Source of the DNA: Candidatus Poribacteria bacterium
GTDB taxonomy: Bacteria > Poribacteria > WGA-4E > WGA-3G
Assembly (NCBI GenBank): GCA_958295815.1
Contig: OY282374.1
Coordinates: 514,856-578,855 of the forward strand
Direction of reading: 5' to 3'
Length of the DNA: 64,000 nt
The notes beneath the pieces are model-generated. The model did not search any database. It worked only from the letters and a program-made list of their open reading frames with translations, and was not told the origin of the DNA. Position numbers and translations under genes: made by a program. Positions 5,875 through 46,031 of the stretch are shown here, in pieces; within the stretch, counting starts at the first letter, position 1, and every line of letters starts with the position of its first letter.

Positions 5875-7293
5875 ATGTTGCTGACAATATCAACCACGTA
5901 TCCTCCTGCAACCGACCTCGGTTATTTGTTGCATAAACACCCATCACGAATTCAATCCTTTAAGCTCGCCTTTGGTCAAGCACACGTCTATTACCCAGAG
6001 GCACATGCTGAGAGGTGCACGGCAGCACTGCTTCTTGATGTTGATTCGGTTGGACTTACCCGCCGTCCGCACGGACAGTTCTCGGAAAATTTCGCACTGG
6101 CGCAGTACGTCAGTGATCGTCCTTACGTTGCTTCGTCGTTTTTGAGCGTCGCGATCGCGCGGGTGTTTAGCAGTGCGTTGTCGGGCAAGTGCAAAGAACA
6201 TCCAGACCTCGCTGAGACCGCTATTCCTTTACGTGCAAAATTATCCATCTTGCCATGTCGTGGAGGAGAGGAATTGTTGCGACGACTTTTCGAGCCGCTG
6301 GGTTATATAGTAGAGGCAGAACGACATGCGCTGGATGCTCAATTCTCGGATTGGGGAGAGAGCCGTTATTTTACAGTGACGCTCGAAAACACCTGTCGCT
6401 TGAGCGAACTCCTCACACATCTTTACATTCTGATGCCTGTACTTGACGACGAAAAACACTATTGGGTTGACGATGCCGAGATCGAAAAACTGTCAAGGCG
6501 TGGTAATGATTGGCTTGCTGCGCATCCAGAACAAGAATCTATTGTCCGTCGCTATTTGAAACATCAACAAGGTCTTACGCGAAAGGCACTTGCCCAATTG
6601 CGCGAAGAAGATGTTCAACAAACTGACGAGCCGATTCAGCAAGAAGCAGAAGCGCAGGTTGAAGAACGAATGGGTCTCAACGATGTCCGTTTGGCTGCGG
6701 TCACTGAAGTCCTCAAACAATGTGGCGCGAAACGTGTTCTTGATTTGGGGTGTGGTGAAGGGAAACTTCTCCGAAGGTTATTGGCTGAAGACCAGTTTGA
6801 AGAGATCGTTGGAATGGATGTTTCACATCGCGCACTAAAGATCGCGCGGGAACGACTTCGTCACGATAGGTTGCCAGAGAAACAGAAAAAACGACTTCGT
6901 CTGTTCCAAGGGTCGCTCGGATATCGAGATAAACGCTTGGTTGGATACGATGCAGCTGTGGTTGTAGAGGTAATCGAACACTTAGATTTGCCACGACTTT
7001 CGGCTTTTGAGCGGGTGCTTTTTGAATCTGCCTGCCCCCGAACCGTGCTGCTGACAACACCAAACATAGAATACAACGTGAAATTTGAGAACCTACAGGC
7101 TGGACGCTTCCGACATAAAGACCACCGTTTCGAGTGGACGCGGGACGAATTTCAGTCCTGGGCAACCAGTATTTCTAACCGCTTTGGTTATACCGTTATG
7201 TTTCATTCAATCGGACCAGAGCATGAAGACGTCGGATCACCGACACAGATGGCAGTTTTTGTCCGAGAAGGTCGGGAAGGCAAAATAACATGA
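5875..7293 (+). CDS. hen1: bacterial Hen1 3'-terminal RNA ribose 2'-O-methyltransferase
   Basis: bacterial Hen1 N-terminal domain (ATDLGYLLHKHP) plus C-terminal SAM methyltransferase (VLDLGCGEGKLL); 4-nt ATGA overlap with pnkp. Confidence 0.85.
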   Translation: MLLTISTTYPPATDLGYLLHKHPSRIQSFKLAFGQAHVYYPEAHAERCTAALLLDVDSVGLTRRPHGQFSENFALAQYVSDRPYVASSFLSVAIARVFSSALSGKCKEHPDLAETAIPLRAKLSILPCRGGEELLRRLFEPLGYIVEAERHALDAQFSDWGESRYFTVTLENTCRLSELLTHLYILMPVLDDEKHYWVDDAEIEKLSRRGNDWLAAHPEQESIVRRYLKHQQGLTRKALAQLREEDVQQTDEPIQQEAEAQVEERMGLNDVRLAAVTEVLKQCGAKRVLDLGCGEGKLLRRLLAEDQFEEIVGMDVSHRALKIARERLRHDRLPEKQKKRLRLFQGSLGYRDKRLVGYDAAVVVEVIEHLDLPRLSAFERVLFESACPRTVLLTTPNIEYNVKFENLQAGRFRHKDHRFEWTRDEFQSWATSISNRFGYTVMFHSIGPEHEDVGSPTQMAVFVREGREGKIT

Positions 7294-9854
7294 TTATGCA
7301 AATTCCTGAACCTTCACTTGTCCTCCTTATTGGACCTTCCGGTTCAGGCAAGTCCACCTTTGCACGTAAGCATTTTAAGCCGACTGAGATTCTTTCATCG
7401 GATTTCTGCCGGGGGCTTGTTTCGGACGATGAGACCGACCAAACGGTAACGAAAGATGCATTCGAAGTGCTGCGTTTCATCGCAGCGAAACGGCTCGCTG
7501 CTGGGAAACTAACGGTCGTTGATGCAACAAACGTTCAGGCGGACGCACGAAAACCTTTGCTTGCATTGGCACGCGAATATCATTACTTAACTGTTGCCAT
7601 TGTATTTGACATGCCTACAAAACTTTGTCAGGAAAGAAATGAGGCGCGGCCCGACCGCGATTTCAAATCGTATGTCATCCGCCAGCAGCGTCAGCAACTA
7701 CGCCGTTCACTGCGTGGACTCAAACGTGAAGGTTTTCGGAACTTCATCTATGTGATGTCCACATCGGAAGCCGTTGAATCTGCATGTGTTGAGCGACAAC
7801 CACTGTGGACGAATCGTAGAGACGAGCAAGGACCATTTGACATCATTGGTGATATTCACGGCTGTTTTGACGAACTTGTTGAATTGCTCAAAGAACTCGG
7901 TTATGGAATCTCAACGCAGCCGAGCGGTGAAATCGTTGTTGAGCCGCCGCAGGGCAGAAAGGCGGTTTTCGTCGGAGATTTTGTTGACCGGGGTCCAAAG
8001 GTTCCCGAAGTGTTACGCTTGGTCATGGGAATGCAAAAGACTGGTGCAGCTATCTGCGTGCCCGGAAATCATGACGTGAAACTCGTACGTGCGCTCCGCG
8101 GCAAAAATGTGAAGCAAACACACGGGTTAGCGGAATCGTTATCTCAATTAGAGAAAACACCAACCGAATTTAAGACGCAAATCGCAGAATTCCTCGATGG
8201 TTTAGTGAGCCACTACGTACTTGACGACGGAAAGTTGGTCGTCGCACACGCTGGAATGAAGGCGGAATTACAAGGTAGGGCATCGGGACGCGTCCGAGAA
8301 TTCGCAATGTATGGAGAAACCACCGGGGAAACCGATGAGTTCGGCTTACCAATTCGGGTCAATTGGGCTGACGAATATCGTGGTGCTGCGATGGTTGTCT
8401 ATGGGCACACACCAGTTGCTGAGCCGCAGTGGGTAAACCAGACAATCAACATTGATACTGGATGTGTTTTTGGTGGCAAATTGACGGCGTTGCGGTATCC
8501 CGAAAAAGAACTCGTGTCTGTTCCCGCACACCAGACCTATTATGAACCGACCAAGCCGCTTCTTGATGAAGTGAACGAACTGCCTTCAGTCAAAACGCAG
8601 GCGTATGATGATGTCTTGGATATTAATGATGTGATGGGAAAGCGCGTTATCAGCACAAGGTTACATCACAACATAACAATCCGCGAAGAGAATACGATAA
8701 CCGCGCTTGAGACGATGAGCCGTTTCGCTGTGAATCCAAAATGGCTTATATACCTTCCACCGACAATGTCCCCAACTGAAACGACAAATAGCCCCGGTTT
8801 GCTTGAACATCCAGCAGAAGGGTTCACTTATTATCGTAGGCAGGGTATATCCAATGTCATCTGGGAAGAAAAACACATGGGATCCCGCGCTGTTGTTGTC
8901 GTTTGTCGGGATCCGGAAACTGCAAAAAGGCGATTTGGTGTTATCGGGGACACCCTCGGCATCTGTTATACACGAACCGGCAGACGTTTCTTTGAGGATG
9001 CCGCAATTGAAACTGAACTGTTAAGACAGGTAAAAGAAGCAATAGACAATGCCGATTATTGGAAAATCTTCGATACAGATTGGATCTGTCTTGACTGCGA
9101 GTTAATGCCTTGGTCGGTTAAGGCTCAGGAGCTGTTACGGCAACAATACGCGCCAGTGGGCACATCAGCTCGTATCGCTTTGGGAGAAGCTGTTGTCTCC
9201 TTAGAGATTGCCGCTGAACGAGATATTGACGTGAGCCATGTATTGGATGACTATCGTCAACGCACCGAAGCAGTGGCGGAATACGTTAAGGCTTATCAGC
9301 AATACTGCTGGCAGGTACAATCTGTCGCAGACCTGAAACTGGCTCCGTTCCATCTCCTTGCGACGGAAGGTGCCGTGTATTTCGACAAAGACCATCAGTG
9401 GCACATGCAAATGCTTACGAAACTCTGTCAAAGTTCTGAGAATGACCTATTGTTTGCAACTTCCTGCGGGGTAGTTGATGTGACTGATGACGCAAGTCAG
9501 GCTGAGGCGATTCGACTGTGGGAAGAACTCACGGCGCAGGGAGGCGAAGGCACAGTCATCAAACCTCTGGATTTTGTCGTTCATGGCAAACGAGGATTGA
9601 TACAACCCGCTGTAAAATGTCGCGGTCGTGAGTATCTCCGGATAATCTATGGACCTGAGTACACCTTGCCCCAGAACTTAGAACGTCTACGTTCCCGTGG
9701 GCTCTCTCGCAAACGTGCCCTCGCGCTCCGGGAGTTTGCATTGGGCGTTGAGGCACTTGAGCGTTTCGTTCGCCGTGAACCCTTATCTCGTGTTCACGAA
9801 TGCGTTTTCGGAATTTTAGCACTCGAAAGTGAGTCGGTTGATCCAAGGCTCTGA
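7290..9854 (+). CDS. pnkp: polynucleotide kinase-phosphatase Pnkp (kinase, metallophosphoesterase and ligase-like domains)
   Basis: P-loop GPSGSGKST kinase, calcineurin-like GDIHGC...GDFVDRGP...GNHD phosphatase, long C-terminal adenylyltransferase-like domain. Confidence 0.85.
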   Translation: MIMQIPEPSLVLLIGPSGSGKSTFARKHFKPTEILSSDFCRGLVSDDETDQTVTKDAFEVLRFIAAKRLAAGKLTVVDATNVQADARKPLLALAREYHYLTVAIVFDMPTKLCQERNEARPDRDFKSYVIRQQRQQLRRSLRGLKREGFRNFIYVMSTSEAVESACVERQPLWTNRRDEQGPFDIIGDIHGCFDELVELLKELGYGISTQPSGEIVVEPPQGRKAVFVGDFVDRGPKVPEVLRLVMGMQKTGAAICVPGNHDVKLVRALRGKNVKQTHGLAESLSQLEKTPTEFKTQIAEFLDGLVSHYVLDDGKLVVAHAGMKAELQGRASGRVREFAMYGETTGETDEFGLPIRVNWADEYRGAAMVVYGHTPVAEPQWVNQTINIDTGCVFGGKLTALRYPEKELVSVPAHQTYYEPTKPLLDEVNELPSVKTQAYDDVLDINDVMGKRVISTRLHHNITIREENTITALETMSRFAVNPKWLIYLPPTMSPTETTNSPGLLEHPAEGFTYYRRQGISNVIWEEKHMGSRAVVVVCRDPETAKRRFGVIGDTLGICYTRTGRRFFEDAAIETELLRQVKEAIDNADYWKIFDTDWICLDCELMPWSVKAQELLRQQYAPVGTSARIALGEAVVSLEIAAERDIDVSHVLDDYRQRTEAVAEYVKAYQQYCWQVQSVADLKLAPFHLLATEGAVYFDKDHQWHMQMLTKLCQSSENDLLFATSCGVVDVTDDASQAEAIRLWEELTAQGGEGTVIKPLDFVVHGKRGLIQPAVKCRGREYLRIIYGPEYTLPQNLERLRSRGLSRKRALALREFALGVEALERFVRREPLSRVHECVFGILALESESVDPRL

Positions 9855-33295: not shown

Positions 33296-34530
33296 TTTGG
33301 GCTGTTCCGCAGCGTAACAACCTTTGTTAGAATAGTGTCTGCTATGTCGTGTTTGGAGGCACGTGGCAATTGTTCACAAGTACCGTGTCGGTCCAGCAAG
33401 GTGACGATGTTAGTGTCGGATTGGAATCCAGCACCTTCTGCGAGAATGTCGTTCGCGACAATTAGATCGCAATTTTTACGAATCAATTTCTTTTTGGCGT
33501 TCTCGAGAAGGTCGTCTGTTTCAGCAGCGAAGCAGACGAGGGTTTGATGCGTTTTCTGCTCACCAAGAGCCTGGGCTATATCTGGATTCCTTTCAAGTGG
33601 CAGTGTTAAGGGGGCATCAGTCTTTTTGATTTTATGGGGTGTAAATTCGCGTGGACGATAATCGGCAGGCGCAGCCGCCATAATAACAATGTCTGTTCCA
33701 TCGAATGCTTGCAGAACTTCGTCGTGCATCTGGAGTGTTGTCTCGACGTGTTGAGTTTTGATGCTAGCAGGTGGAGAGACAGTCGCGGCTCCGCTGATTA
33801 GACGCACTTCTGCCCCGCGCTGTGCTGCCGCTTGGGCGATAGCGTAGCCCATCTTACCGCTGGAGCGGTTGGTGATAAATCGGACTGGATCGATATACTC
33901 GCGTGTACCACCGGCTGTAACGAGGACGCGTGTGCCGCGCAGATCGTTTATTTCTGCTGTAAGCGCAGTTTCCGATTTTGCCGTGGATACCAGAATACCA
34001 CTTACGCCTTCGAGAATCGTCTCTACTGTATTCAAACGTCCTACACCTTCATAGCCGCATGCCAGATCACCGCTTGCGGGTTCAATGAAATGGAAACCGT
34101 GTGTTTTCAAAGTGTTGATGTTCCGTTGGACGATAGGATTATGATACATGTGCCCGTTCATTGCGGGTGCGAGAAGGACTGGACAATGGACGGAAACAGC
34201 AACAGTAGAGAGTGGATCATCGGCGATGCCGTTTGCGAGTTTACCAATAATATTCGCTGTTGCGGGGACAATCATGAGAAGATCGGCACGGTCGGCGAGA
34301 TCAATGTGCGGAGGTTTCCAATCTGTGCCTGTGTCAAATAAGTCCAGGAGAACCGGGTTTCGCGAGATAACTTGGAATTGCAAAGGTTGGACAAGACGGG
34401 TGGCACTCTCCGTCATAACGACGTGAACAGATGCACCGCTTTTGACAAGTTGGCTCGCCACATCAATCGATTTATGGATGGCTATACCACCTGTGACACC
34501 TAAGATGACGGTCCGATCTTTGAATTCCAT
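33292..34530 (-). CDS. coaBC: bifunctional phosphopantothenoylcysteine decarboxylase / phosphopantothenate-cysteine ligase
   Basis: flavoprotein N-domain (ILGVTGGIAIHK) plus DFP C-domain; 4-nt overlap with ksgA. Confidence 0.9.
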   Translation of the reverse strand: MEFKDRTVILGVTGGIAIHKSIDVASQLVKSGASVHVVMTESATRLVQPLQFQVISRNPVLLDLFDTGTDWKPPHIDLADRADLLMIVPATANIIGKLANGIADDPLSTVAVSVHCPVLLAPAMNGHMYHNPIVQRNINTLKTHGFHFIEPASGDLACGYEGVGRLNTVETILEGVSGILVSTAKSETALTAEINDLRGTRVLVTAGGTREYIDPVRFITNRSSGKMGYAIAQAAAQRGAEVRLISGAATVSPPASIKTQHVETTLQMHDEVLQAFDGTDIVIMAAAPADYRPREFTPHKIKKTDAPLTLPLERNPDIAQALGEQKTHQTLVCFAAETDDLLENAKKKLIRKNCDLIVANDILAEGAGFQSDTNIVTLLDRHGTCEQLPRASKHDIADTILTKVVTLRNSPK

Positions 34531-36051: not shown

Positions 36052-36187
36052 AACTGACAACCGAAAATCGAAGACTGGAAACTACACCGTTGACATTCTG
36101 GCGGTCGTAGACTATAATAACAGTGGTATAGCCCTATGAGAGGGTGCTTTCAAACCATATAAATTATAAAAGGATAAGGTGATTCTG

Positions 36188-36958
36188 ATGGATTTAGGAT
36201 TAAAAGACAAAGTGGTGGTTGTAACAGGTGCGAGTCGCGGGATCGGACGTGCGATCGCACACAGTTTCGCTGATGAAGCGGCGCGCCTGAGTATTTGTGG
36301 CAGAACCGAAGATACACTCCAAAGCGTAACGAGTGAACTCACGGCAAAAGGCGCACAAGTCTTCGCAAAACTCACGGATGTCACAGATACAGGTCAAGTT
36401 GAGGCATTTGTAACGGAAACGCTGGAAACGTATGGCAGGATTGATGTTGTTGTGAACAACGTAGGTGGTAGCCGATGGACCCCTTTAGAAGATATTTCGG
36501 ATACCGAGTGGCACGAGATTTTCGATCTGAACCTGGTTTCTGCAGCACGGGTTAACCAACTCGCGATCCCTGAGATGAAGAAGCAAGGCAGTGGCGTGAT
36601 TCTGATGATTACTTCCATCTACGGCAGGGAGGGTGGTGGACACATTACATATAACGCCGCGAAAGCCGCCGAAATCAGTATGACAAAATCGTTGGCAAGA
36701 GAACTCGCACCGGACAATATCCGTGTAAATAGTGTCGCACCCGGTTCGATTCTCTTTCCGGGCGGCGGTTGGGCGCGCCGGATAGCAGCGGATCCAGAAG
36801 CGATGGAAGCCTTTGTGAAGAGCGATATGCCGTTGGGTAGGTTTGGGAAACCTGAAGAGATTGCGAATGTTGTTGTCTTTCTTGCCTCCGAACGGGCGAG
36901 TCTTGTAACGGGTGCCTGTGTGAACGTTGATGGGTGCCAGACGCACTCAAATATTTGA
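36188..36958 (+). CDS. SDR-family oxidoreductase (3-oxoacyl-ACP reductase-like)
   Basis: TGASRGIGRAIA Rossmann motif and downstream Y..xK catalytic region. Confidence 0.85.
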   Translation: MDLGLKDKVVVVTGASRGIGRAIAHSFADEAARLSICGRTEDTLQSVTSELTAKGAQVFAKLTDVTDTGQVEAFVTETLETYGRIDVVVNNVGGSRWTPLEDISDTEWHEIFDLNLVSAARVNQLAIPEMKKQGSGVILMITSIYGREGGGHITYNAAKAAEISMTKSLARELAPDNIRVNSVAPGSILFPGGGWARRIAADPEAMEAFVKSDMPLGRFGKPEEIANVVVFLASERASLVTGACVNVDGCQTHSNI

Positions 36959-36982
36959 TGTGTCTTGTAGGTAGGTTGGTAT

Positions 36983-37028
36983 GCGGATTATCTCAGCTCA
37001 TTTTTTGTGAGATTATCCGCATTTTTTC
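36983..37028 (+). terminator. rho-independent terminator after the SDR gene
   Basis: perfect 13-bp inverted repeat gcggattatctca/tgagattatccgc followed by attttttcc. Confidence 0.65.
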
Positions 37029-37230
37029 CTTAACATCCTACAACTTTTGAAACTACCGTAGTAGGACTCGTAAACAACTTCTATTTTTCCAGTTGTAGTC
37101 GTTTTTCAGAAAAAAACGGCTCTTCTGTTTATCTTGATAGTGTACGCTTGTGTTCCGGTCATGCCGTGGTAAAGGATACCTTAAGATTTCAGTAGCAATT
37201 TCAACATAAACACTGCTTGTTGTTCGGCAT

Positions 37231-37245
37231 TGGCACGAAACTTGC
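37231..37245 (+). promoter_or_regulatory. sigma-54 (-24/-12) promoter TGGCAC-gaaac-TTGC
   Basis: exact consensus read from sequence. Confidence 0.55.
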
Positions 37246-37406
37246 CTAAGTACTAACATAGTTTGAACACAATGTTCTTGCTAACGAAACTCTAAGTGCT
37301 AACTTTACCTAAAAGGATGACTGAAAATGAAGATTATCTACGTTTTACTCACAACGAATAAGAAATCTTCGACGTAATGTAATTGGGCTGTTACAGAATA
37401 AATATA

Positions 37407-37482
37407 GGGAAACCAGTCTATGTACTGTTCTTGCAGAGAGGATATGTCTTTGCAAGATGAAACGTAGAACAGGTTTCCCTTT
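37407..37482 (+). other. long imperfect hairpin (gggaaacc...ggtttccc) followed by ttt; candidate terminator of a sigma-54-dependent small transcript
   Basis: 8-bp outer stem plus nested inner stems (ctgttc/gaacag, cttgca/tgcaag), T-run after 3' arm. Confidence 0.35.
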
Positions 37483-37797
37483 AGCATTTAAAAGGGGACT
37501 TTCTGTTTTATGGGATCTTGAGCGCGATGTGGAGTATTGCTTGGGTGGATACGTCAAAGTAGTGGAGTTAGCTGCGTCAATAAGACGTATTGCGTCAAAA
37601 TAGCGTGGTTAAAAATCGGTTTGAATTCGTAGCAATAATGGGGTTACGAGCGAGACTTTTATTCTTCAGTTTCAGGAAAACATCTCTTCTTTTTTTCCTG
37701 AATCGAGTGTTTACTTGTGTTTTAGGCACATCATAGTCGAAAAGACGTTTACGATTGTAACAGTTTTGACACAAATATTATGCTATGTTCAAGGGAA

Positions 37798-37812
37798 TGG
37801 CACGAAATTTGC
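37798..37812 (+). promoter_or_regulatory. sigma-54 promoter TGGCAC-gaaat-TTGC about 110 nt upstream of ORF 37925
   Basis: exact consensus read from sequence. Confidence 0.55.
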
Positions 37813-37924
37813 TCTATCAGTTTTATAGTATCATTATGAGAAACCATATACAACGTAGTTAACGTTGGTCAATCATCAGGAACAATGTCACATACTGGAT
37901 CTCTGAATCACAATTCTATAGAGT

Positions 37925-38701
37925 ATGATACCTGGTATAATACTATCGCCAATCCTTAATGAAGAGGGTAGGAGCAGGTGGGCAAAAATCTGCCTATTCC
38001 ACATTCACAGTGAGGTGAAACAAGTGAGAATTGTCATATATACAGCCGGTATTCTTGTCGTCTTAGCGGTTGCATGGACACTGTATCTTAACCTCGGCTT
38101 AAAAGACTTTGAAGCAAGGCTTTCACAGGTTCCTGCGTCTCCCACAACTCCACAGGAGACCTCGCAGGAGACAAAAGTTAGTGAGAGTGATACACAGCCT
38201 GAAACGGAAGTATCCAGTGATGTTTTGGAATTTGATGAGGCTGCTACTGTTGAAGATGTTTACCCGAAAATGGAATCAGAAGAGGATCAAGACTCCCTCG
38301 TTATCTGGACAGACTCGGATACCGAATCGTCCATTGATGCCGAAACAGCGATCGTTGAAGCACCTTTAACTCTTAACGAGGGCACACCGGTAGCAACAGT
38401 TGTGGGTCCCTGTGGTGAAATCTGCGAACCGTCGGAATCGAGTGTAGATATTCTAAGTCTCTCCAAGAATGAGCAGCGTGAGTTCTTCCGTGAAGGCTTG
38501 ATAAGGCGGTTCGGTGATATTCCTGAAGTCCACGTTTTCATTCATTACATGGAACTTGCACACAGTCATCAAACGATTTCAGAGAAAGAGGCTCTGGAAA
38601 ATGCCCGCGCGATTGCCACTCTGTTTCCAAATGAGGCAAACAAAAGACATCTCCAAGAAATGGAGTTGCATGTGGCGTCAAGTAGGGCAACGCGGAGATA
38701 G
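37925..38701 (+). CDS. hypothetical membrane-anchored acidic protein (single TM, Ser/Thr/Glu/Asp-rich extracytoplasmic region); start uncertain
   Basis: TM helix IVIYTAGILVVLAVAWTLYL followed by a low-complexity acidic region; no recognisable domain. Confidence 0.45.
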   Translation: MIPGIILSPILNEEGRSRWAKICLFHIHSEVKQVRIVIYTAGILVVLAVAWTLYLNLGLKDFEARLSQVPASPTTPQETSQETKVSESDTQPETEVSSDVLEFDEAATVEDVYPKMESEEDQDSLVIWTDSDTESSIDAETAIVEAPLTLNEGTPVATVVGPCGEICEPSESSVDILSLSKNEQREFFREGLIRRFGDIPEVHVFIHYMELAHSHQTISEKEALENARAIATLFPNEANKRHLQEMELHVASSRATRR

Positions 38702-38781: not shown

Positions 38782-38954
38782 GAAAATTCGTCTAAGTAAG
38801 AAAATACGATTGCCATAGCGGCGGATGTCCCTGCGCCGAAACCTGAATCGAAAGTGAGCTGTTGGAGCGGAATTTTCAAAATGCGAAAGAAATGCGGATC
38901 TTCAAATCCAAACGGTTGATGTTACATACCATCAGAAATCCAACGGAGAGTCTG

Positions 38955-39671
38955 ATGAAATTAGTTATTATTCTAGGGATGTTTATTTTTTTGACTTTCT
39001 CTGCCTCAGCAGGGACGTTTGTAGAGACATTCGATGGTGGGGATTTGGATGAATGGCGGGAAATTATCTTGTTAGATCTTAAGATTAAGCCTGGGACTTG
39101 GGAAATTATTGACGGTGAACTTCACGGGACAATGCGTCATATAGGGCTGCCACGTCTGCTGACGACGGGTGATGAAAAGTGGCGTAATTACACCATTGAA
39201 GTTGATGTATTCCCTCTCGAAAAACACAGTCCCGGAAATATTGGAATAGCTGCGCGAATTCAGGGAACTGTCGGGATAATTAGTCTTATTGGGGATTATG
39301 CCTTCCCATTTCCGGCGAACCCCAACCCTGGACTAACAGTGACATGTTTTGGCGGTGATTTTCACGACAATATTCTCCACTTATTTGGGACTGAAGTTAG
39401 CCCATTGTTGGAATTAGGAACATGGTCTACTATGAAACTCCAGGTGAATGAAGATGTGTTTACGCTTTGGCTGAATGGTGAGCAAGTTTTGCTAGCGAGA
39501 GATGACACCTTTGACTTTTCTACAGGTCGAGTAGGTTTGGTTCTCACAGGTTATACGGTGAAGTTCGATGATTTGGTGATCACCGGCGATGGCATCCCAA
39601 ATAAGGGAAAATTATCAGTAACCCCGACAGACAAACTCGCGACAATGTGGAGTAGTTTGAAGCAGTTTTAA
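38955..39671 (+). CDS. secreted DUF1080-type (concanavalin-like / 3-keto-disaccharide hydrolase-like) protein with conserved C-terminal tail ...DKLATMWSSLKQF
   Basis: signal peptide MKLVIILGMFIFLTFSASA, WEIIDGELHG DUF1080-like motif; paralog of 41851-42597. Confidence 0.6.
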   Translation: MKLVIILGMFIFLTFSASAGTFVETFDGGDLDEWREIILLDLKIKPGTWEIIDGELHGTMRHIGLPRLLTTGDEKWRNYTIEVDVFPLEKHSPGNIGIAARIQGTVGIISLIGDYAFPFPANPNPGLTVTCFGGDFHDNILHLFGTEVSPLLELGTWSTMKLQVNEDVFTLWLNGEQVLLARDDTFDFSTGRVGLVLTGYTVKFDDLVITGDGIPNKGKLSVTPTDKLATMWSSLKQF

Positions 39672-39693: not shown

Positions 39694-40254
39694 ATGCTAA
39701 AATCTCCTGCTAAAATCCATCGTGTCCACAAATTTATACACAACAATAAGTTGTGTATCGCCGATCTAGATCGGTTCCGGTTGATAGAAATTAATCGGGT
39801 TGCGTGGGATGTCATCAATCTGAACGCAATGCAACATATCAACACATCACCTTTTTTTCTTATTAACGGCGATGTCCTTCTTGAGAACTTTTCACTACGA
39901 GAAATGTTAAAATGCTTTGATCAAAAGATGATGGGACTCCTGCTAAGTGTACGAGTAGATGATATTCGTCCTTACGGCGAAATCGTATCAGATAGCGATG
40001 GGAGAGTCCAAGCATTTCGTGAAAAACAGCCAATCTGCCGAGCTGGATACATTAACGGTGGCGTGTATCTCTTCAATCGAACTGTCATTGACGCGTTTCC
40101 TAAACACCGAGAGCATTTCTCTATAGAACGAGAGGTCTTCCCATACCTATCCAATCTTTACGCTTTGAAGACCGAAGCGAGTTGGATTGATATTGGAGTT
40201 CCAGAGCGATTAGCGTATGCGAGACAACACTTTCAAAACGGAGCCTGTCGATGA
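39694..40254 (+). CDS. sugar-phosphate nucleotidyltransferase (ManC/GMPP-like) lacking the N-terminal GxGTRL nucleotide-binding segment; possible truncated gene
   Basis: similarity begins about 50 residues into the family (FFLINGDVL ... GGVYLFNRTVID ... WIDIGVP); only 22 bp separate it from the upstream gene. Confidence 0.45.
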   Translation: MLKSPAKIHRVHKFIHNNKLCIADLDRFRLIEINRVAWDVINLNAMQHINTSPFFLINGDVLLENFSLREMLKCFDQKMMGLLLSVRVDDIRPYGEIVSDSDGRVQAFREKQPICRAGYINGGVYLFNRTVIDAFPKHREHFSIEREVFPYLSNLYALKTEASWIDIGVPERLAYARQHFQNGACR

Positions 40255-41720
40255 ATCCCGACATCTTTCGAGCATACGACATTCGCGGCATTCTTGGCGT
40301 GGACTTTGAACCGAAAGATTTTTATCGAATTGCCCGTGCTTTCGCTGCTCGATTTCAACCGAAAATTGTCGCCTTAGGACACGATGTCCGAGAAAGTTCT
40401 TCTCATCTATGGCAACAGGTCGCAGACGGACTCCGAGACTCGGGTGTTGACGTGCTTGATCTCGGTCAGATTTCAACCGATATGCTCTATTTCGCTGTAG
40501 TGCAATATCAGACGGATGGAGGTATTATCATTTCCGCCTCCCATAATCCAGCAGCTTATAATGGCATGAAACTGGTCCGTCAGCATGCTGTACCACTTTC
40601 TTCAGAAACCGGACTCTTTGATGTACGCGATGCCGTTGAAAGCAAAGACCAATTTGAAAAACATATCGCTAGCAAACGCGGCAATCTTCGGACTGCCCTG
40701 TTTTTGGACGCATACCTTGCACATCTGCGGTCTTTTGTGAATTTGCAGCAGCTTTTGAACAGGCGAATTGTCATCAATGCTAATGGTGGACTTGCTGGGC
40801 ATATTGCCGAATGCCTGTTAACATCAACACAGATTCAGATCTGTAAACGGCTATTTTGCAAGCCTGATGGAACATTCACCAACATTCCAGAGGATCGCCC
40901 CGACCCGCTACGCCCCGAGAATCGAAAATTAACGATAGAGACAGTCAAGCAGACAAGTGCGGATCTGGCGGTCGCATGGGACGTAGATGCAGATAGGTGC
41001 TTTTTTTATGATGAAAATGGAGAATTCGTTGAGGGATGTTACATTACGGCACTGCTCGCGGAATGCCTTCTTCAACAAAAACGAGGTGGAATTGTCATTT
41101 TTGACCCAAGAGCCATTTGGGCAGTGGAGAACTCCGTTACTTCTGCCAATGGCACACCACTTCTCAACCGATGCGGACACTCGTTTATCAAAATCCGCAT
41201 GCGGGAAACTGATGCCCTTTTTGCAGGAGAAACCAGTGGACACTACTATTTCCGTGACAATTTCTATGCTGATAACGGTATGCTCCCCTTTTTGTTTGTA
41301 CTTGAAATCCTCTGTGCAAAGAGGAGTTCACTCGCGGAACTGGTTAACCCTCTCCGAGCGAAATATCCGGTTTCTGGTGAAATCAACTTTGCGTTTGAAA
41401 GTCGTAATCTGATGCATGTTGCGATGAACACAGTCGAGCGTACACTGCACCAATTAGGGAGCCATTTCCACCTTGAAGCCCCTGTTGATGGCATGTCGGT
41501 CCGATTTCTCACAAACCGCCGAAGCGGCAATTTCAGTCGTCCAGAACCCGGCAGCTGGCGGTTCAATCTCCGAGAGTCAAACACTGAACCACTTTTGCGA
41601 TTCAATCTTGAAAACGTTGAGTCTCTCTCTCTTCATGTTGAAAAAACGGAGCAGCTTAGTGAAATGCTGGAGAACCTCGGCGGCAGACGAGAAACAAAAT
41701 TTCGTTGGGAAAATGGATAA
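40251..41720 (+). CDS. phosphomannomutase / phosphoglucomutase (alpha-D-phosphohexomutase)
   Basis: active-site SASHNPAAYNG, metal loop DVDADR, sugar loop GETSGH. Confidence 0.85.
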   Translation: MNPDIFRAYDIRGILGVDFEPKDFYRIARAFAARFQPKIVALGHDVRESSSHLWQQVADGLRDSGVDVLDLGQISTDMLYFAVVQYQTDGGIIISASHNPAAYNGMKLVRQHAVPLSSETGLFDVRDAVESKDQFEKHIASKRGNLRTALFLDAYLAHLRSFVNLQQLLNRRIVINANGGLAGHIAECLLTSTQIQICKRLFCKPDGTFTNIPEDRPDPLRPENRKLTIETVKQTSADLAVAWDVDADRCFFYDENGEFVEGCYITALLAECLLQQKRGGIVIFDPRAIWAVENSVTSANGTPLLNRCGHSFIKIRMRETDALFAGETSGHYYFRDNFYADNGMLPFLFVLEILCAKRSSLAELVNPLRAKYPVSGEINFAFESRNLMHVAMNTVERTLHQLGSHFHLEAPVDGMSVRFLTNRRSGNFSRPEPGSWRFNLRESNTEPLLRFNLENVESLSLHVEKTEQLSEMLENLGGRRETKFRWENG

Positions 41721-41850
41721 TTCCGTGAAATGAACCAAGAGAACTTCTCCTAGTAATGGTTTTGAATTATCTCATTATGCCAGGAAGTTCTCATTCTACG
41801 GTGTTGTTCTATTCTGAGGACTTACTTTGAACTCACGTCATAGGAGGATT

Positions 41851-42597
41851 ATGATGAAATCAATTATTATTATCGCCATACTTTTCCTTTTTCCCTTCTG
41901 TACATGGTCAGGCACGTTTCTGGAAACTTTCGATCACGGTGATCTTGAGGGTTGGCAGGAACTTAGTGCCCATGACGCTTTACCCGGTTCATGGGAGATC
42001 ATTGATGGCGAACTTCAGGCAATAATTCCTGGGGCATCTCGTTATCTCATAACGGGTGATGAGACATGGAAAGATTACAGTATCCAGGTTGATGTGATGC
42101 CTCTTGAAAAACCAGGTCCCGGAAATATCTCGATTCTCGCCCGTGTTAAAGGAAATTGGGCAGTTGATTGTGGGATTACCGACCTGATTTTCAATGATCC
42201 TGAATCAAAAGTGGTATGTTCTAGCCTTGATGTTCACGCAAATGAAGGCACCGTTCTGCACATTGAACCTTATCCGGCTTTAAGATCAAATAAATGGTCT
42301 AGACTGAAATTAAGTGTCAATGGAGATCACTTTAGTTTCTGGATAAATGAGAAGAAGATTGTGGAAACGGGAGGAGAGTTTGTCCTCATACAAGACGGTC
42401 GGGAATTTCAACTAAAGACAATGGATCTCTCACGCCACCCGGTAGACACAGGCGGGGCAGGTTTTGGTCTCGCGTATCATACAGCGAGATTCGATAATAT
42501 TACGATCATCGGCGATAGTATACCTGACAAAGGTAGATTACCAGTATCGCCTCAAGCAAACCTATCGACAATGTGGAGTAGTTTGAAGCAGTTTTAG
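41851..42597 (+). CDS. secreted DUF1080-type protein, paralog of 38955-39671, C-terminal tail ...NLSTMWSSLKQF
   Basis: RBS aggagg, signal peptide, SWEIIDGELQ motif, identical last 9 residues to the paralog. Confidence 0.6.
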   Translation: MMKSIIIIAILFLFPFCTWSGTFLETFDHGDLEGWQELSAHDALPGSWEIIDGELQAIIPGASRYLITGDETWKDYSIQVDVMPLEKPGPGNISILARVKGNWAVDCGITDLIFNDPESKVVCSSLDVHANEGTVLHIEPYPALRSNKWSRLKLSVNGDHFSFWINEKKIVETGGEFVLIQDGREFQLKTMDLSRHPVDTGGAGFGLAYHTARFDNITIIGDSIPDKGRLPVSPQANLSTMWSSLKQF

Positions 42598-42755: not shown

Positions 42756-43925
42756 ATGAGTTTCAGTGTTTTTGAACTATTAACGTACGAAAGAATGATT
42801 TTTTTCGCAATTTTGAGCTGTGGACTTTATGCCAGTTACACTGATTTCCGCTACGGGAAAATCGCTAACGGTTACACCGTGTTTTTAATCGGCTTTGGTA
42901 TAATCTGTCAAATGGTATTCGTAAGTGAAGGAGACATCACCTGGATACACAGTTGTGTTACCCTTTTCGGTGGATTAGGTATCTCTTTTGTATTGTTTTA
43001 TACCGGGATATGGGCAGCTGGGGATGCTAAACTGTTTTGGGGTATCAGTTTACTGATGCCACCGAGTGCTTTTACCCGTACCCCGGAGACGCAATTTTAT
43101 CCGTTGATCTTGATGGTGAATATTTTTCTCCTTTTTTTGGTCTATATCACATTACAGTCCGTCTATAAATTGACCTTTCAACAGCAGCGGATGCTGATTG
43201 TCAAAGGTTTTGTTGCACAAGCAAAGCAATTTCCGAAACGCCTTCTTCAGGTGCTTTCTTATGTCGGTGTAAGTGGACTGGCTTTTTATATTCCCGCACA
43301 CCTTGGTATAGAGTTAGATGTCGCAATCCGCATAGCTCTATTCATAGCGATTGCTTTTGCTTTCAATAGAGTAGTTGAAAAGTACATCCCTCAGAAATAC
43401 AGAATCACATTTCATATTCCGTTTCTCCTTTTAGCTCTCTTTTTGGCTATCCCTTCGCTAATTCAACTCGGTATTTTTATCGTCATTATCTTTGTTTTTC
43501 CATGGTTTCTAATCATGTTTGACTCTGTAGTCCGTTCCGTTTTTACAAAACAGGTTCCTATTGAAAGTCTTCGTCCTAACATGATCCCTGCGGAACGCAT
43601 CGTCAAAATTGAAGGACAAAACATGGACGATAAATACGTGAAAACTCCTGCAGGTTTTGCAAATCCGGCGCGAGATAGCATTATTGTGGATGTTTCATCT
43701 GAAGGGTTAACATCGCCCCAGGTTGAGCACTTGCGCCAACTTGCTGCAGAAGGTAGTTTGAAGGAATACGAAAATAGACTGCTTATTCAGGAAAAAATCC
43801 CATTTGCTTTGATGATTGTTTTGGGCGGCTTAGTGACACTACCTGCAAAGGGGATTGCTTATTCGTTTTTTCAGAGTGCAGAGATGCATCAGGTTTTGGA
43901 GAGAATAGGTTCGTTCTTTTCTTGA
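42756..43925 (+). CDS. A24-family (CpaA/TadV-type prepilin peptidase-like) aspartyl protease domain fused to a long C-terminal membrane/soluble extension
   Basis: YTDFRYGKIAN (first catalytic Asp motif D-x-R-x-x-x-I-P/A-N) and WAAGDAKLF (GGGDVKL-like second Asp); 389 aa versus about 170 aa for CpaA. Confidence 0.5.
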   Translation: MSFSVFELLTYERMIFFAILSCGLYASYTDFRYGKIANGYTVFLIGFGIICQMVFVSEGDITWIHSCVTLFGGLGISFVLFYTGIWAAGDAKLFWGISLLMPPSAFTRTPETQFYPLILMVNIFLLFLVYITLQSVYKLTFQQQRMLIVKGFVAQAKQFPKRLLQVLSYVGVSGLAFYIPAHLGIELDVAIRIALFIAIAFAFNRVVEKYIPQKYRITFHIPFLLLALFLAIPSLIQLGIFIVIIFVFPWFLIMFDSVVRSVFTKQVPIESLRPNMIPAERIVKIEGQNMDDKYVKTPAGFANPARDSIIVDVSSEGLTSPQVEHLRQLAAEGSLKEYENRLLIQEKIPFALMIVLGGLVTLPAKGIAYSFFQSAEMHQVLERIGSFFS

Positions 43926-44771
43926 TTAAAAAATAGCTGGAGTAATCGAGAATATTTACCTTACGTTACTCTCTGGTGTTTTTTGCCTTTGAGTTCTTGG
44001 GTATCCGTACTCTACAAATCTTATCATGTACGGATGATATATAATGACTGTCCCTCCTTGTATACATATCCTCCGTACCTACCACTTGTCACTCACCTTA
44101 CATATTTCCTTCTATTAATTGTGGATTCCACAAGGAAATGCCGATATACAAATCAATAGTGGAACAACTTTGGAGTATATGGGCAATTGACTTGCTATGC
44201 AATCCTTTCTATGCGTGAAATTTTTGCAGAATTTTATGGTATATAGTGGTAATTTTTGCGTGCTAATATCGGAAATGAATTACAAATGAATTTCATTATA
44301 ATGTTTTCAAGAAAAGATAATTACTTTGTTTCTTTTTGATAAACCCAGTGTGTGTCTGTGTTTTAGGGGAGTCTAAGCAATAAATATATACCATTATATG
44401 ATTTTTATATAAATAATGTATATTTATATATCAATTGGCACTAAATTTGCTTGTCTTAATATAGCAGTTCTCACTAAATTTGCATGCTTTTATTAACAAG
44501 GGCGTACTTTGATTTTAATTGAATAAAGTTGTTATCGACTGTGTGTAACTTTCTGAGGAATATATTTGCGGTGTTGATTGCTGATAGTTATCAGTGAAGT
44601 TGTTTTCGTCATAGATATTCAACTGGAAACAACGGTTTCTGACTCACCACTCATACGCGCTAAGTCCTTGAATCAAACTTACATTCGCAAGGAGCGCGCA
44701 TTGCAACGTGACAGGCAGTGAATTTCTTGAACCTGTTCAAAAGCATTAGATGAATCGGGTAGTGTGTAAAA
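43926..44771. other. about 850-bp AT-rich non-coding island (A/T tracts, sigma-54 promoter) upstream of a sigma-54 activator gene
   Basis: no credible ORF; very low GC; direct repeat cactaaatttgc x2. Confidence 0.6.
44436..44450 (+). promoter_or_regulatory. sigma-54 promoter TGGCAC-taaat-TTGC
   Basis: exact consensus; a degenerate second copy (ctcactaaatttgc) lies 40 nt downstream. Confidence 0.55.
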
Positions 44772-46031
44772 ATGAACGACCGAATCAGAGAAGAGAATAC
44801 CTCTAATGAAGTACACATTGTTATTATTAGTGATGTGCCTGATACAGCAAGAAAATTAAAGGACGAGCTTGAACAGAACGGATATAAAGTCTCTATTGCT
44901 ACCGATCGCGACACACAAATCTCGCTCCGCGCTGGCGATGCAATCTTGCGGGTGACCTACGAGGATAACGCTAACTTGCTAATTTCAGGACAACAAAGAG
45001 ATAGCGTGTTTGCGATTGTGGAAGAGGCTCAGTCTGCGCTGAGAAGAGATAAATTTTCAGGGGATTACGGAGAAATTATTGGAGAAAGTTCCCAAATTTT
45101 TGAGGTTCTACAGCAAATTGAAGATCTTGCAGCTACGCCGTTGAGAGTCCTAATTTCTGGTGAAACCGGAACAGGTAAGGGGGTGGTCGCGCGTGCCCTG
45201 CATGAAAATAGTGGCAGATCGGGTGAAATGGTTTCTATCAACTGTGCAGCAATACCAGTAAACTTACTGGAAAGTGAGTTGTTTGGACATGAGAGAGGCG
45301 CATTTACAAGTGCCGATGCCCGACGTATTGGTAGGTTTGAAAGGGCTCACAATGGGACGCTGTTTCTTGATGAAATCGTTGAGATGCCGCTCTCCATGCA
45401 ACCGAAGTTGTTACGCGCAATTGAGGAAGGCGAAATTGAACGCGTTGGTGGTGAAAAGCCAATTGCAGTGAATGTCCGAATTGTGGCGGCTACCAACAAG
45501 GATCTTGCGCGAGCTGTTAAAGATGGTATATTTCGTGAAGACCTCTATTATCGATTGAATGTTGCCTCTATATCTCTACCGATGTTATCAGAGAGAAAGG
45601 AGGATATCTATGTGTTAGTGTCGCATTTCCTTGAGAAATATCGACGATTTTTCAGTCCCTCAATTTTGCAAATCGCTAAAAGTACGCGAGCTCTCCTTGA
45701 AACCTATCCATGGCCCGGGAATGTGCGAGAGTTGGAGAATGCTATTGAGAGAGCTTCTTACCTTATTAAAAAAGGAGTGCTCTTACCGGAGCACCTACCA
45801 GAAGAGATTACGGCGTACCAAAGACAACCTGTGGATGTCTCCAAAGAGATTTCTACATTTGAAGACGAGCAAAAGGTGAGCGTGCCTCTTGGAACGAAGT
45901 TTGACGCAATGGAAGAAGCTTTCATTCGTACCACTTTGGAATGGCATGATGGGAATCGAACAAAAACGGCGGAGACACTCGGGATTGGTATACGAACGTT
46001 ACAGAGGAAGTTGAAAAAATATAACGCTTAA
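44772..46031 (+). CDS. sigma-54-dependent transcriptional activator (bEBP; AAA+ with GAFTSA variant of GAFTGA, C-terminal Fis-type HTH), atypical N-terminal domain
   Basis: Walker A GETGTGKG, GAFTSA, ESELFGHE, C-terminal HTH RTKTAETLGIGIRTLQRKLK. Confidence 0.85.
   Translation: MNDRIREENTSNEVHIVIISDVPDTARKLKDELEQNGYKVSIATDRDTQISLRAGDAILRVTYEDNANLLISGQQRDSVFAIVEEAQSALRRDKFSGDYGEIIGESSQIFEVLQQIEDLAATPLRVLISGETGTGKGVVARALHENSGRSGEMVSINCAAIPVNLLESELFGHERGAFTSADARRIGRFERAHNGTLFLDEIVEMPLSMQPKLLRAIEEGEIERVGGEKPIAVNVRIVAATNKDLARAVKDGIFREDLYYRLNVASISLPMLSERKEDIYVLVSHFLEKYRRFFSPSILQIAKSTRALLETYPWPGNVRELENAIERASYLIKKGVLLPEHLPEEITAYQRQPVDVSKEISTFEDEQKVSVPLGTKFDAMEEAFIRTTLEWHDGNRTKTAETLGIGIRTLQRKLKKYNA

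Follow-up and report, generated by a model that had tools for sequence, protein, structure and literature searches.

The window, by which we mean the whole 64-kb stretch of DNA analysed here, carries three motifs that are probably genuine sigma-54 (-24/-12) promoters, whose regulon fills a variable cassette between conserved dehydrogenase and activator genes. There are exactly three copies of the motif TGGCAC-N5-TTGC in the window, at sites that we call P1, P2 and P3 (Table 1), always on the plus strand and always between genes. By chance, 0.15 occurrences are expected, and none of 100 dinucleotide-preserving shuffles contained three or more. Allowing one mismatch added only four further sites to the window, which is a chance-level number. 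The two islands that hold the motifs have GC contents of 36–39% and 28–35%, against ∼45–50% in their flanks. The original prediction had described three exact plus-strand motifs in AT-rich islands, and its count, coordinates and GC contrast were borne out; the T that it placed before each motif is found everywhere except at P2, where the preceding base is A. A PWM trained solely on sites from related genomes, and then run over the window, gave only three matches there of at least 14 bits, scoring 30.0 (P1), 24.3 and 22.6 bits, while the top score over 30 shuffles was 18.2 bits.

Table 1. Features of the window and sigma-54 sites in related loci (an empty cell means that no value is given; minus-strand sites in related loci are marked in the position column).
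Feature	Position	Strand	Detail
Short-chain dehydrogenase	36179-36958	+	Pfam
First island	36959-38023		
Likely intrinsic terminator of dehydrogenase gene	36981..37030	+	15-bp stem then T run
P1 class-A module	37102..37248	+	75.3 bits against profile R1; predicted start ∼37257
P1 class-A upstream element	37139..37159	+	AGTGTACGCTTGTGTTCCGGT, 92 nt before TGGCAC
P1 core	37231-37245	+	TGGCACGAAACTTGC; exact motif
Conserved inverted repeat and overlapping terminator-like hairpin	37403..37498	+	Sole candidate P1 transcript end
Class-B enhancer-like triad	37550..37607	.	190-250 nt upstream of P2, ∼320 nt downstream of P1
P2 class-A module	37663..37815	+	91.8 bits against profile R1; predicted start ∼37824
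P2 class-A upstream element	37706..37726	+	AGTGTTTACTTGTGTTTTAGG, 92 nt before TGGCAC
P2 core	37798-37812	+	TGGCACGAAATTTGC; exact motif
Small hairpin CAACGT-agtta-ACGTTG	37851..37867	+	P2 leader; kept in L091, L093, L094, L096
sORF24, 24 codons	37885..37959	+	MSHTGSLNHNSIEYDTWYNTIANP; first cistron after P2
Acidic membrane-anchored protein	38024..38701	+	N-terminal TM helix, acidic linker, C-terminal domain with RFGDIPEVH
DUF1080-type (PF06439, 3-keto-disaccharide hydrolase) proteins, n = 2	38862-39671, 41827-42597	+	Pfam
Truncated nucleotidyl transferase	39694-40254	+	Pfam
Phosphomannomutase-like enzyme	40251-41720	+	Pfam
A24-peptidase-like membrane protein	42756-43925	+	Pfam
Second island	43926-44771		
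Candidate regulatory block upstream of P3	44201..44310	.	Best conserved there, 85% identical to L081
P3 class-A module	44304..44453	+	82.4 bits against profile R1; predicted start ∼44462
P3 class-A upstream element	44347..44367	+	AGTGTGTGTCTGTGTTTTAGG, 89 nt before TGGCAC
P3 core	44436-44450	+	TGGCACTAAATTTGC; exact motif
Degenerate P3 core copy	44469..44483	+	TCTCACTAAATTTGC; 33 nt after P3; -24 GG lost
NtrC-family sigma-54 activator (bEBP)	44772..46031	+	Short N-terminal domain, AAA+, C-terminal HTH_8
DUF1501 protein, methyltransferase, cupin, melibiase-like protein	46135 onwards	+	Pfam
L081 sites	9625, 9681		
L083 sites	900, 7281		
L084 sites	2750, 6163, 5980(-)		
L087 sites	2611, 5098		
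L088 site	7915		
L089 sites	1431, 6020, 5835(-)		
L005 site	5220		
L090 sites	1798(-), 4933(-)		

The motif recurs in related loci. Loci L081–L089 were retrieved through activator orthologs at 66–83% identity, and wherever a related locus has both a full-length activator ortholog and sufficient upstream DNA, -24/-12 elements are present in its cassette. Across nine related loci, 16 further sites score at least 21.5 bits, of which 15 are exact TGGCA[CT]-N5-TTGC. The scores are bimodal, with the real set at 21.5 bits or above and the remainder of ∼330 kb at 16.6 bits or below. All 16 sites are intergenic and face a gene start no more than ∼590 nt away (within ∼380 nt for 15 of them). P2 has positional counterparts at L084 2750, L089 1431, L083 900 and L088 7915, and the site orthologous to P3 is L081 9625, while P1 has no ortholog in any relative. 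The spacer differs by promoter class (GAAAC in class A, GGTAA in class B), as do the flanks, and the core is kept, which indicates that it is the GG and GC boxes that are under constraint. Judged from these sequences, such retention is what would be expected of sigma-54 recognition, unlike a repeat. The -24/-12 elements that persist in relatives amid divergent surroundings, between genes and co-oriented with them, uphold the earlier reading of the motifs as sigma-54 promoters.

That the motifs are chance occurrences, or sites of another DNA-binding protein, is extremely improbable. A promoter scan did show that the TTGGCA of P1 and P3 doubles as a weak sigma-70 -35-like match (9 of 12), but three motifs were observed for 0.15 expected, all scoring above the shuffles, both boxes are kept at exact spacing in nine related loci, and their placement and orientation are consistent, with a sigma-54 activator gene adjoining. 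A chance origin is effectively ruled out by the motif counts, the shuffles, the PWM and the scores in relatives.

Among the GTDB Poribacteria loci L001–L006, an exact-motif search found a site in L005 only. The activator matches in L001–L004 and L006 span only query residues ∼85–418, without the N-terminal domain, and these loci may therefore hold paralogs. Within the 64-kb window, Pfam models and an RpoN-box search found no rpoN, and none was found in any fetched related locus; we infer that sigma-54 is present in the host. Poribacteria are uncultivated and, to our knowledge, gene regulation in the phylum is essentially unstudied. Control of this type is ordinary for bacteria, and our literature search found no description of it, nor any paper on sigma-54, for Poribacteria.

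An AAA+ activator, probably the cognate one, adjoins the promoters, and its loop is of the GAFTGA type. In Pfam, the protein matches PF00158 (2.3e-68), the AAA lid and HTH_8 (2.2e-12); its relatives in the PDB are NtrC1 and ZraR, and its closest relatives all come from Candidatus Poribacteria assemblies. Both Walker motifs, A and B, are present. The canonical sigma-54 contact loop is GAFTGA, of which the activator carries the variant GAFTSA, whose F, T, S and A do not vary across eight orthologs. The recognition helix of the HTH, IGIRTLQRKLKKY, is invariant among the orthologs (66–83% identity) and in a short paralog encoded in L005. The protein does not show the receiver, phospho-acceptor Asp and partner kinase of an NtrC-type response regulator: no Pfam family matches its first 100 residues, its N-terminal domain has no conserved Asp after the third strand, and no kinase gene was found within the 64-kb window. 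The N-terminus comprises ∼95 extra residues that are conserved among the orthologs, with a domain of ∼65 residues. No NCBIfam equivalog reaches its cut-off for the activator.

P1, P2 and P3 share a module of ∼150 nt, made up of a T/C-rich tract, a conserved element, an AT-rich stretch and the core. The conserved class-A element, AGTGT-N5-TGTGTTyyrGG, lies 89–92 nt before TGGCAC and occurs three times in the window, at P1–P3 only. At P3, the element and its flank form the dyad AAACCCAG-N7-CTGTGTTT. A general dyad of the form AAACnCAG-N7-CTGnGTTT was rejected as a description of the class-A element; it is good in P3, L084 and L090 but not in P1 or P2. Over the upstream 135 nt without the core, the similarity between P1 and P2 was matched in none of 300 shuffles, and that between P2 and P3 in one of 300. 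Downstream of P1 and P2 the similarity is no better than in shuffles. The regions there are unrelated, and we therefore rejected P1 as a tandem duplicate of P2 that includes the downstream part. Full-length matches to profile R1 were confined to the three window sites and promoters in L005, L081, L084, L089 and L090, with those outside its training set lying in L090 (4917–5063, 64.5 bits) and L084 (2653–2767, 46.2 bits). A metagenome scan with the exact pattern of class-A element plus core returned a single locus (L090), the pattern being too strict for listing a regulon. In L084 and L089, two divergent promoters flank a single class-A element, the layout expected of a shared enhancer.

Class B is characterised by three CGYCA-AAA-TGRCG palindromes, spaced 24 and 17–18 nt, the last of which starts 58–60 nt before TGGCAC. 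This architecture is present in L083 (twice), L087 (twice) and L088. In the window, the palindromes score 19.7 (37573), 15.2 (37591) and 8.5 bits (37550) with a class-B PWM, and the class-A module sits between the triad and the P2 core. Triads homologous to that of the window are found in L083, L084, L087, L088 and L089, and a pair of sites in L005. The combined layout of class B and class A also occurs in L005, with the site pair, and in L090, with a single degenerate remnant, while in L084 and L089 the triad lies ∼505 nt upstream of the first promoter. Of the two enhancer-like elements, the class-B triad is the older. None of the top class-B PWM matches lies near P1 or P3. Enhancer-like elements had been anticipated upstream of the promoters, and candidates were found, namely the class-A element at ∼90 nt and, at P2 only, the class-B triad. 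As for the IHF sites suggested by the A/T tracts, the consensus WATCAANNNNTTR has no convincing match upstream of P2 and of L084 5980(-), read by eye.

The candidate enhancers are of two unrelated kinds, the locus encodes a single activator, and P1 and P3 have no class-B site nearby, so at least one of the elements is probably bound by another protein. The promoters may even be real and run by a different activator, a paralog elsewhere in the genome, with class A and class B serving two proteins; we consider this possible, if on balance unlikely. Consistent with it are the two unrelated types of upstream motif, the many short paralogs (∼330–360 aa) without the N-terminal domain in the family, the position of the L005 and L090 class-A modules next to such paralogs, and the full-length ortholog that is still present in the class-B-only loci (L083, L087 and L088). 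However, the promoters cluster tightly round the full-length activator gene in every locus, and the recognition helix of the L005 short paralog is that of the full-length proteins, which means that short and full-length forms may share their specificity. In the reading that we prefer, sigma-54 RNA polymerase would sit on each TGGCAC-N5-TTGC as a closed complex, and a hexameric activator bound upstream, most likely the 44772–46031 protein, would open it using ATP. As with sigma-54 itself, we infer the pairing of activator and element, the transcript ends and the signal.

P2 most likely drives a pair of genes encoding a peptide and an anchor protein, as gene order and conservation suggest. The first cistron, sORF24, which the original prediction had missed, starts at +73 from the P2 -12 box with an AGGA ribosome-binding site 5 nt upstream. 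Its product has 71–88% amino-acid identity in six loci, where it stands before every acidic-protein ortholog with upstream DNA recovered, and most of the differences affect the third base of a codon (for example, 6/1/13 over the three positions), which is a coding-type pattern. The interval from P2 to the acidic protein is conserved (92% in L091, 80% in L093) because sORF24 lies there. We rejected the P2 leader as a structured RNA, given that its fold is no better than that of shuffles (z = -0.46) and that sORF24 accounts for the conservation. The small hairpin in the leader is changed on both stem sides in L094, to CGACGT...ACGTCG. Contrary to the earlier description, the first island is only partly non-coding, as it contains sORF24.

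The acidic protein starts at GTG 38024, which has a GAGGTG ribosome-binding site, rather than at ATG 37925, because the N-termini of its homologs align there; all ten homologs (P0121–P0130) open with the same N-terminal TM segment, and eight of the ten with MR[IV]V[IV]YTA. P2 is 212 nt from this GTG and not ∼110 nt upstream of the gene as first described, and the gene that it directly serves is sORF24 rather than the acidic protein. The acidic protein matches no Pfam or NCBIfam family. Class-B sigma-54 promoters precede the genes of its distant homologs L083_241 and L088_215, the latter being the first gene after L088 7915. In L091–L097, the pair of sORF24 and acidic protein has no sigma-54 promoter: L093 has it behind a tRNA, L094 carries it on a plasmid-like contig, and in L091 and L092 it is flanked by IS elements; sigma-54 control of the pair is therefore not universal. 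In the window, the P2 transcript would comprise a 61-nt leader with the small hairpin, sORF24, the acidic protein and possibly genes beyond.

P1 lies in DNA that L084 and L089 do not have. Compared with these loci, the window has ∼420 extra bases (∼36962–37382) between the dehydrogenase stop and the conserved inverted repeat, consisting of the terminator hairpin, the P1 module and ∼140 nt without a homolog. The insertion is followed by the ancestral inverted repeat and hairpin, the triad and P2, in that order. In L084 and L089, the arms of the inverted repeat are kept directly after the dehydrogenase stop, with no promoter in front. P1 is intergenic and co-oriented, with the next conserved gene 640 nt away, and the P1-specific stretch (37246–37400) has no homolog anywhere and no conserved ORF, its longest ORFs being 14–25 codons. 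We read P1 as a lineage-specific, functional extra copy whose transcript ends at the hairpin or runs on into the P2 operon. It would thus give either a short transcript of ∼240 nt or read-through that adds to P2.

It is improbable that the product of P1 is a free-standing, sigma-54-dependent small RNA of ∼240 nt (37257 to ∼37500) in the manner of Qrr or GlmY. Like Qrr1–5 and GlmY, it combines a sigma-54 promoter with a structured RNA and a terminator-like hairpin, here with a T-rich tail at the end, no plausible conserved ORF follows, and the predicted RNA 37257–37515 folds better than shuffles (z = -4.8). Unlike them, its RNA has no sequence or structure match, its P1-specific part is not conserved, and its structured part (37403–37498) predates P1, being ancestral and promoterless in L084 and L089. 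The fold signal stems from this ancestral element and is therefore no evidence for a P1-specific RNA. No known Rfam family was found in either island at the gathering score or at E up to 1, which leaves P1 without a match there, and what follows P1 does not amount to a discrete, conserved, structured and terminated RNA.

A second alternative, which we regard as doubtful, is that the class-A unit is a promoter cassette spreading by duplication or insertion, and that P1 is a recent passenger without a selected function of its own. Promoter reuse and putative mobile promoters have been described (PMC3575422), and, as in promoter reuse, homologous promoter-plus-upstream units here front unrelated downstream sequence in one genome. 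Three copies of the module lie within 7.3 kb, each before unrelated sequence, and module homology ends at the -12 box. The position of P1 inside the ∼420-nt insertion points the same way, as do the class-A modules seemingly inserted between triad and gene in the window, L005 and L090, and the tandem core duplicates that decay differently in the window and L081. Unlike in promoter reuse, the window copies are diverged (only ∼60–70% alike), with identity in islands and conservation concentrated in likely binding sites, which fits binding sites at fixed spacing too; mobility is putative, and terminal repeats and target-site duplications were not seen. The P1 core is moreover the top-scoring of the three (30 bits), which argues that it is not decaying as a passenger. 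Our preferred reading of P1 remains that of a functional extra copy.

The activator gene lies 322 nt after the P3 -12 box, and the predicted P3 start leaves a 310-nt leader. We rejected a coding function for this leader, in which neither a conserved ORF nor codon periodicity was found. The P3 region aligns with L081 over ∼700 nt, taking in the module, the block at 44201–44310 and the second tandem core, whose L081 counterpart keeps the GG and has TTGT instead of TTGC. The class-A element and this block are present near P3, and there is no class-B site. P3 would transcribe the non-coding leader together with the activator gene, giving positive feedback. The original prediction had suggested that the activator gene is autoregulated. 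Autoregulation is plausible in so far as the arrangement of P3 before the activator gene is common to L081, the closest relative, but it is not a general feature, because a PWM scan detected no sigma-54 site ahead of this gene in four orthologous loci (L083, L085, L087 and L088). In both L084 and L089, a sigma-54-driven STT3 operon is followed by the activator gene as the last gene. Positive feedback on the activator gene in the window itself appears plausible from this layout.

The flanks of the cassette are syntenic in L081–L089, with the dehydrogenase on one side and the activator, DUF1501 protein, methyltransferase, cupin and melibiase on the other, and the genes between dehydrogenase and activator vary from genome to genome. 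No NCBIfam family was found for the DUF1080-type (PF06439) proteins. A tentative reading, to which we give rather low credence, is that the stretch from dehydrogenase to activator is a hypervariable cargo island in which the regulatory front end and activator are kept, the cargo is swapped, the class-A module is copied to wire in cargo and P1 is freshly inserted. The front end in question consists of a hairpin, the palindrome triad, the class-A module and the sigma-54 promoter. As to the cargo, it includes small secreted peptides, membrane-anchored acidic proteins and glycosylation genes, and also lectin-like and beta-propeller proteins that share a C-terminal tag.

The mechanism is the textbook one of sigma-54 and an enhancer-binding protein with feedback, and the closest known system is glnAp2/NtrC. 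In enteric bacteria, glnAp2/NtrC consists of a sigma-54 promoter, multiple upstream NtrC dyads and an operon that contains ntrC. The present system shares the TGGCAC-N5-TTGC core, class-B sites that are dyad-symmetric, about two helical turns apart and 60–130 nt upstream, and an activator of AAA+ and Fis-type HTH domains whose gene lies downstream of a sigma-54 promoter (positive feedback). Unlike NtrC, the window activator has no receiver domain or conserved phospho-acceptor Asp and no nearby histidine kinase, its loop is GAFTSA, and no NCBIfam equivalog fits at cut-off. The site sequence, CGYCAAAATGRCG, is unrelated to that of NtrC sites, and the products are small secreted or membrane-anchored proteins of no assigned function, not proteins of nitrogen metabolism. 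PspF is resembled by the many ∼330-aa paralogs of the clade, which have AAA+ and HTH domains only, and the PspF/pspA system by the regulated products, which are envelope proteins; unlike PspF, the window activator has the extra N-terminal domain of ∼95 residues, and no PspA-like partner was seen. As in PilR systems, in which sigma-54 controls type IV pilin and secretion-related genes, an A24 prepilin-peptidase-like gene is present in cassettes (the window and L081), and a weakly GspC-like protein (E = 1.2e-6, below the family cut-off) is encoded directly behind an L084 sigma-54 promoter, whereas the cassettes have no pilin, ATPase or secretin genes.

The locus represents a concrete, testable Poribacteria regulon. 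Its promoter consensus is defined (ATTGGCACGAAAYTTGCT), there are two candidates for the enhancer motif, and the dedicated activator lacks a classical sensor domain. Its products form a secreted and envelope set that includes a conserved 24-residue peptide, and the locus illustrates how a promoter module can persist or be duplicated as the genes that follow it are exchanged. Its chief interest lies in the unstudied phylum, the conserved micro-ORF and the variable cargo that would be under this control.

A conserved 24-codon ORF, sORF24, is preceded by a ribosome-binding site and lies in front of every ortholog of the acidic membrane protein whose upstream sequence was retrieved. Substitutions in sORF24 are biased to the third codon position, and the gene calls of all fetched loci omit it. 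At one of these loci, L094 (JGI 3300000400), the sORF24/acidic-protein pair resides on a 52-kb contig together with a Rep3 replication protein, a phage-type integrase and IS605 OrfB, which suggests that the pair travels on mobile DNA. Both here and at L096, a further locus with the pair, the position of the predicted sigma-54 promoter P2 (37798 in the window) is occupied by a small secreted peptide of 48 aa, comprising a signal peptide and then ...SHYDVYYCTN. A relative at L090, a locus with class-A promoter modules, is found directly 3' of a sigma-54 promoter.

Just upstream of the palindrome triad, the class-B enhancer-like element preceding P2, there is invariably a conserved inverted repeat (window, and the activator-ortholog loci L084 and L089). 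A terminator-like hairpin, whose loop AGCATTTA is conserved, overlaps the 3' arm of this repeat. At L084 the triad and the promoter are separated by the insertion of a MITE-like element, and an end resembling that of this element is present at L090 (~2185–2196). An isolated strong class-B palindrome match (18.6 bits) within the CoaBC-like coding region at 34409–34425 of the window is probably due to chance.

Coordinates of elements and genes in the window and related loci
Feature	Location	Details
Conserved inverted repeat	window 37403–37498; L084 2055–2150; L089 ~745–840	arms ATAGGGAAAC...GGTTTCCCTTTA
MITE-like element, ~125 nt	L084 2316–2441	terminal inverted repeats AGGACTTACGCA...TGCGTAAGTCCT
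sORF24	window 37885–37959	MSHTGSLNHNSIEYDTWYNTIANP
Small secreted peptide family	L096 471–617; L094 5731–5856; L090 4511–4834(-)	
Membrane protein	window 42756–43925	type IV prepilin peptidase (A24) and archaeal PepC C-terminal domains
Proteins with shared C-terminal motif	window 38862–39671, 41827–42597; L083 2126–6968; L087 3785–7067	
STT3-family oligosaccharyl transferase	L084 6310–8721; L089 6607–9021	in cassette

The cassette, the variable genes between the dehydrogenase and activator genes, includes a nucleotidyl-transferase ORF (window 39694–40254) of 186 aa, compared with 249 aa at the related locus L081. Its Pfam match is restricted to positions 100–241, and the N-terminus appears to have been lost at the insertion point of the upstream cassette. 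The A24/PepC membrane protein is kept at L081 with 82% identity, and there are no pilin genes near it. Otherwise unrelated secreted proteins share the motif L[ST]T[LM]W[GS]xLKQ[QFW] at their extreme C-terminus: in the window these are lectin-like proteins of the DUF1080 type, at L083 and L087 PD40 beta-propellers. No NCBIfam model matched this motif, a possible tag for sorting or processing. The window also contains a Hen1/Pnkp RNA-repair gene pair at 5875–9854 (Hen1_L, 1.7e-113; PNKP_ligase, 4.2e-179).

At L084 and L089 a sigma-54 promoter is followed directly by the STT3-family gene, then by a methyltransferase gene and the activator gene. This placement of the STT3-family gene suggests that the regulon of these two genomes includes protein glycosylation.
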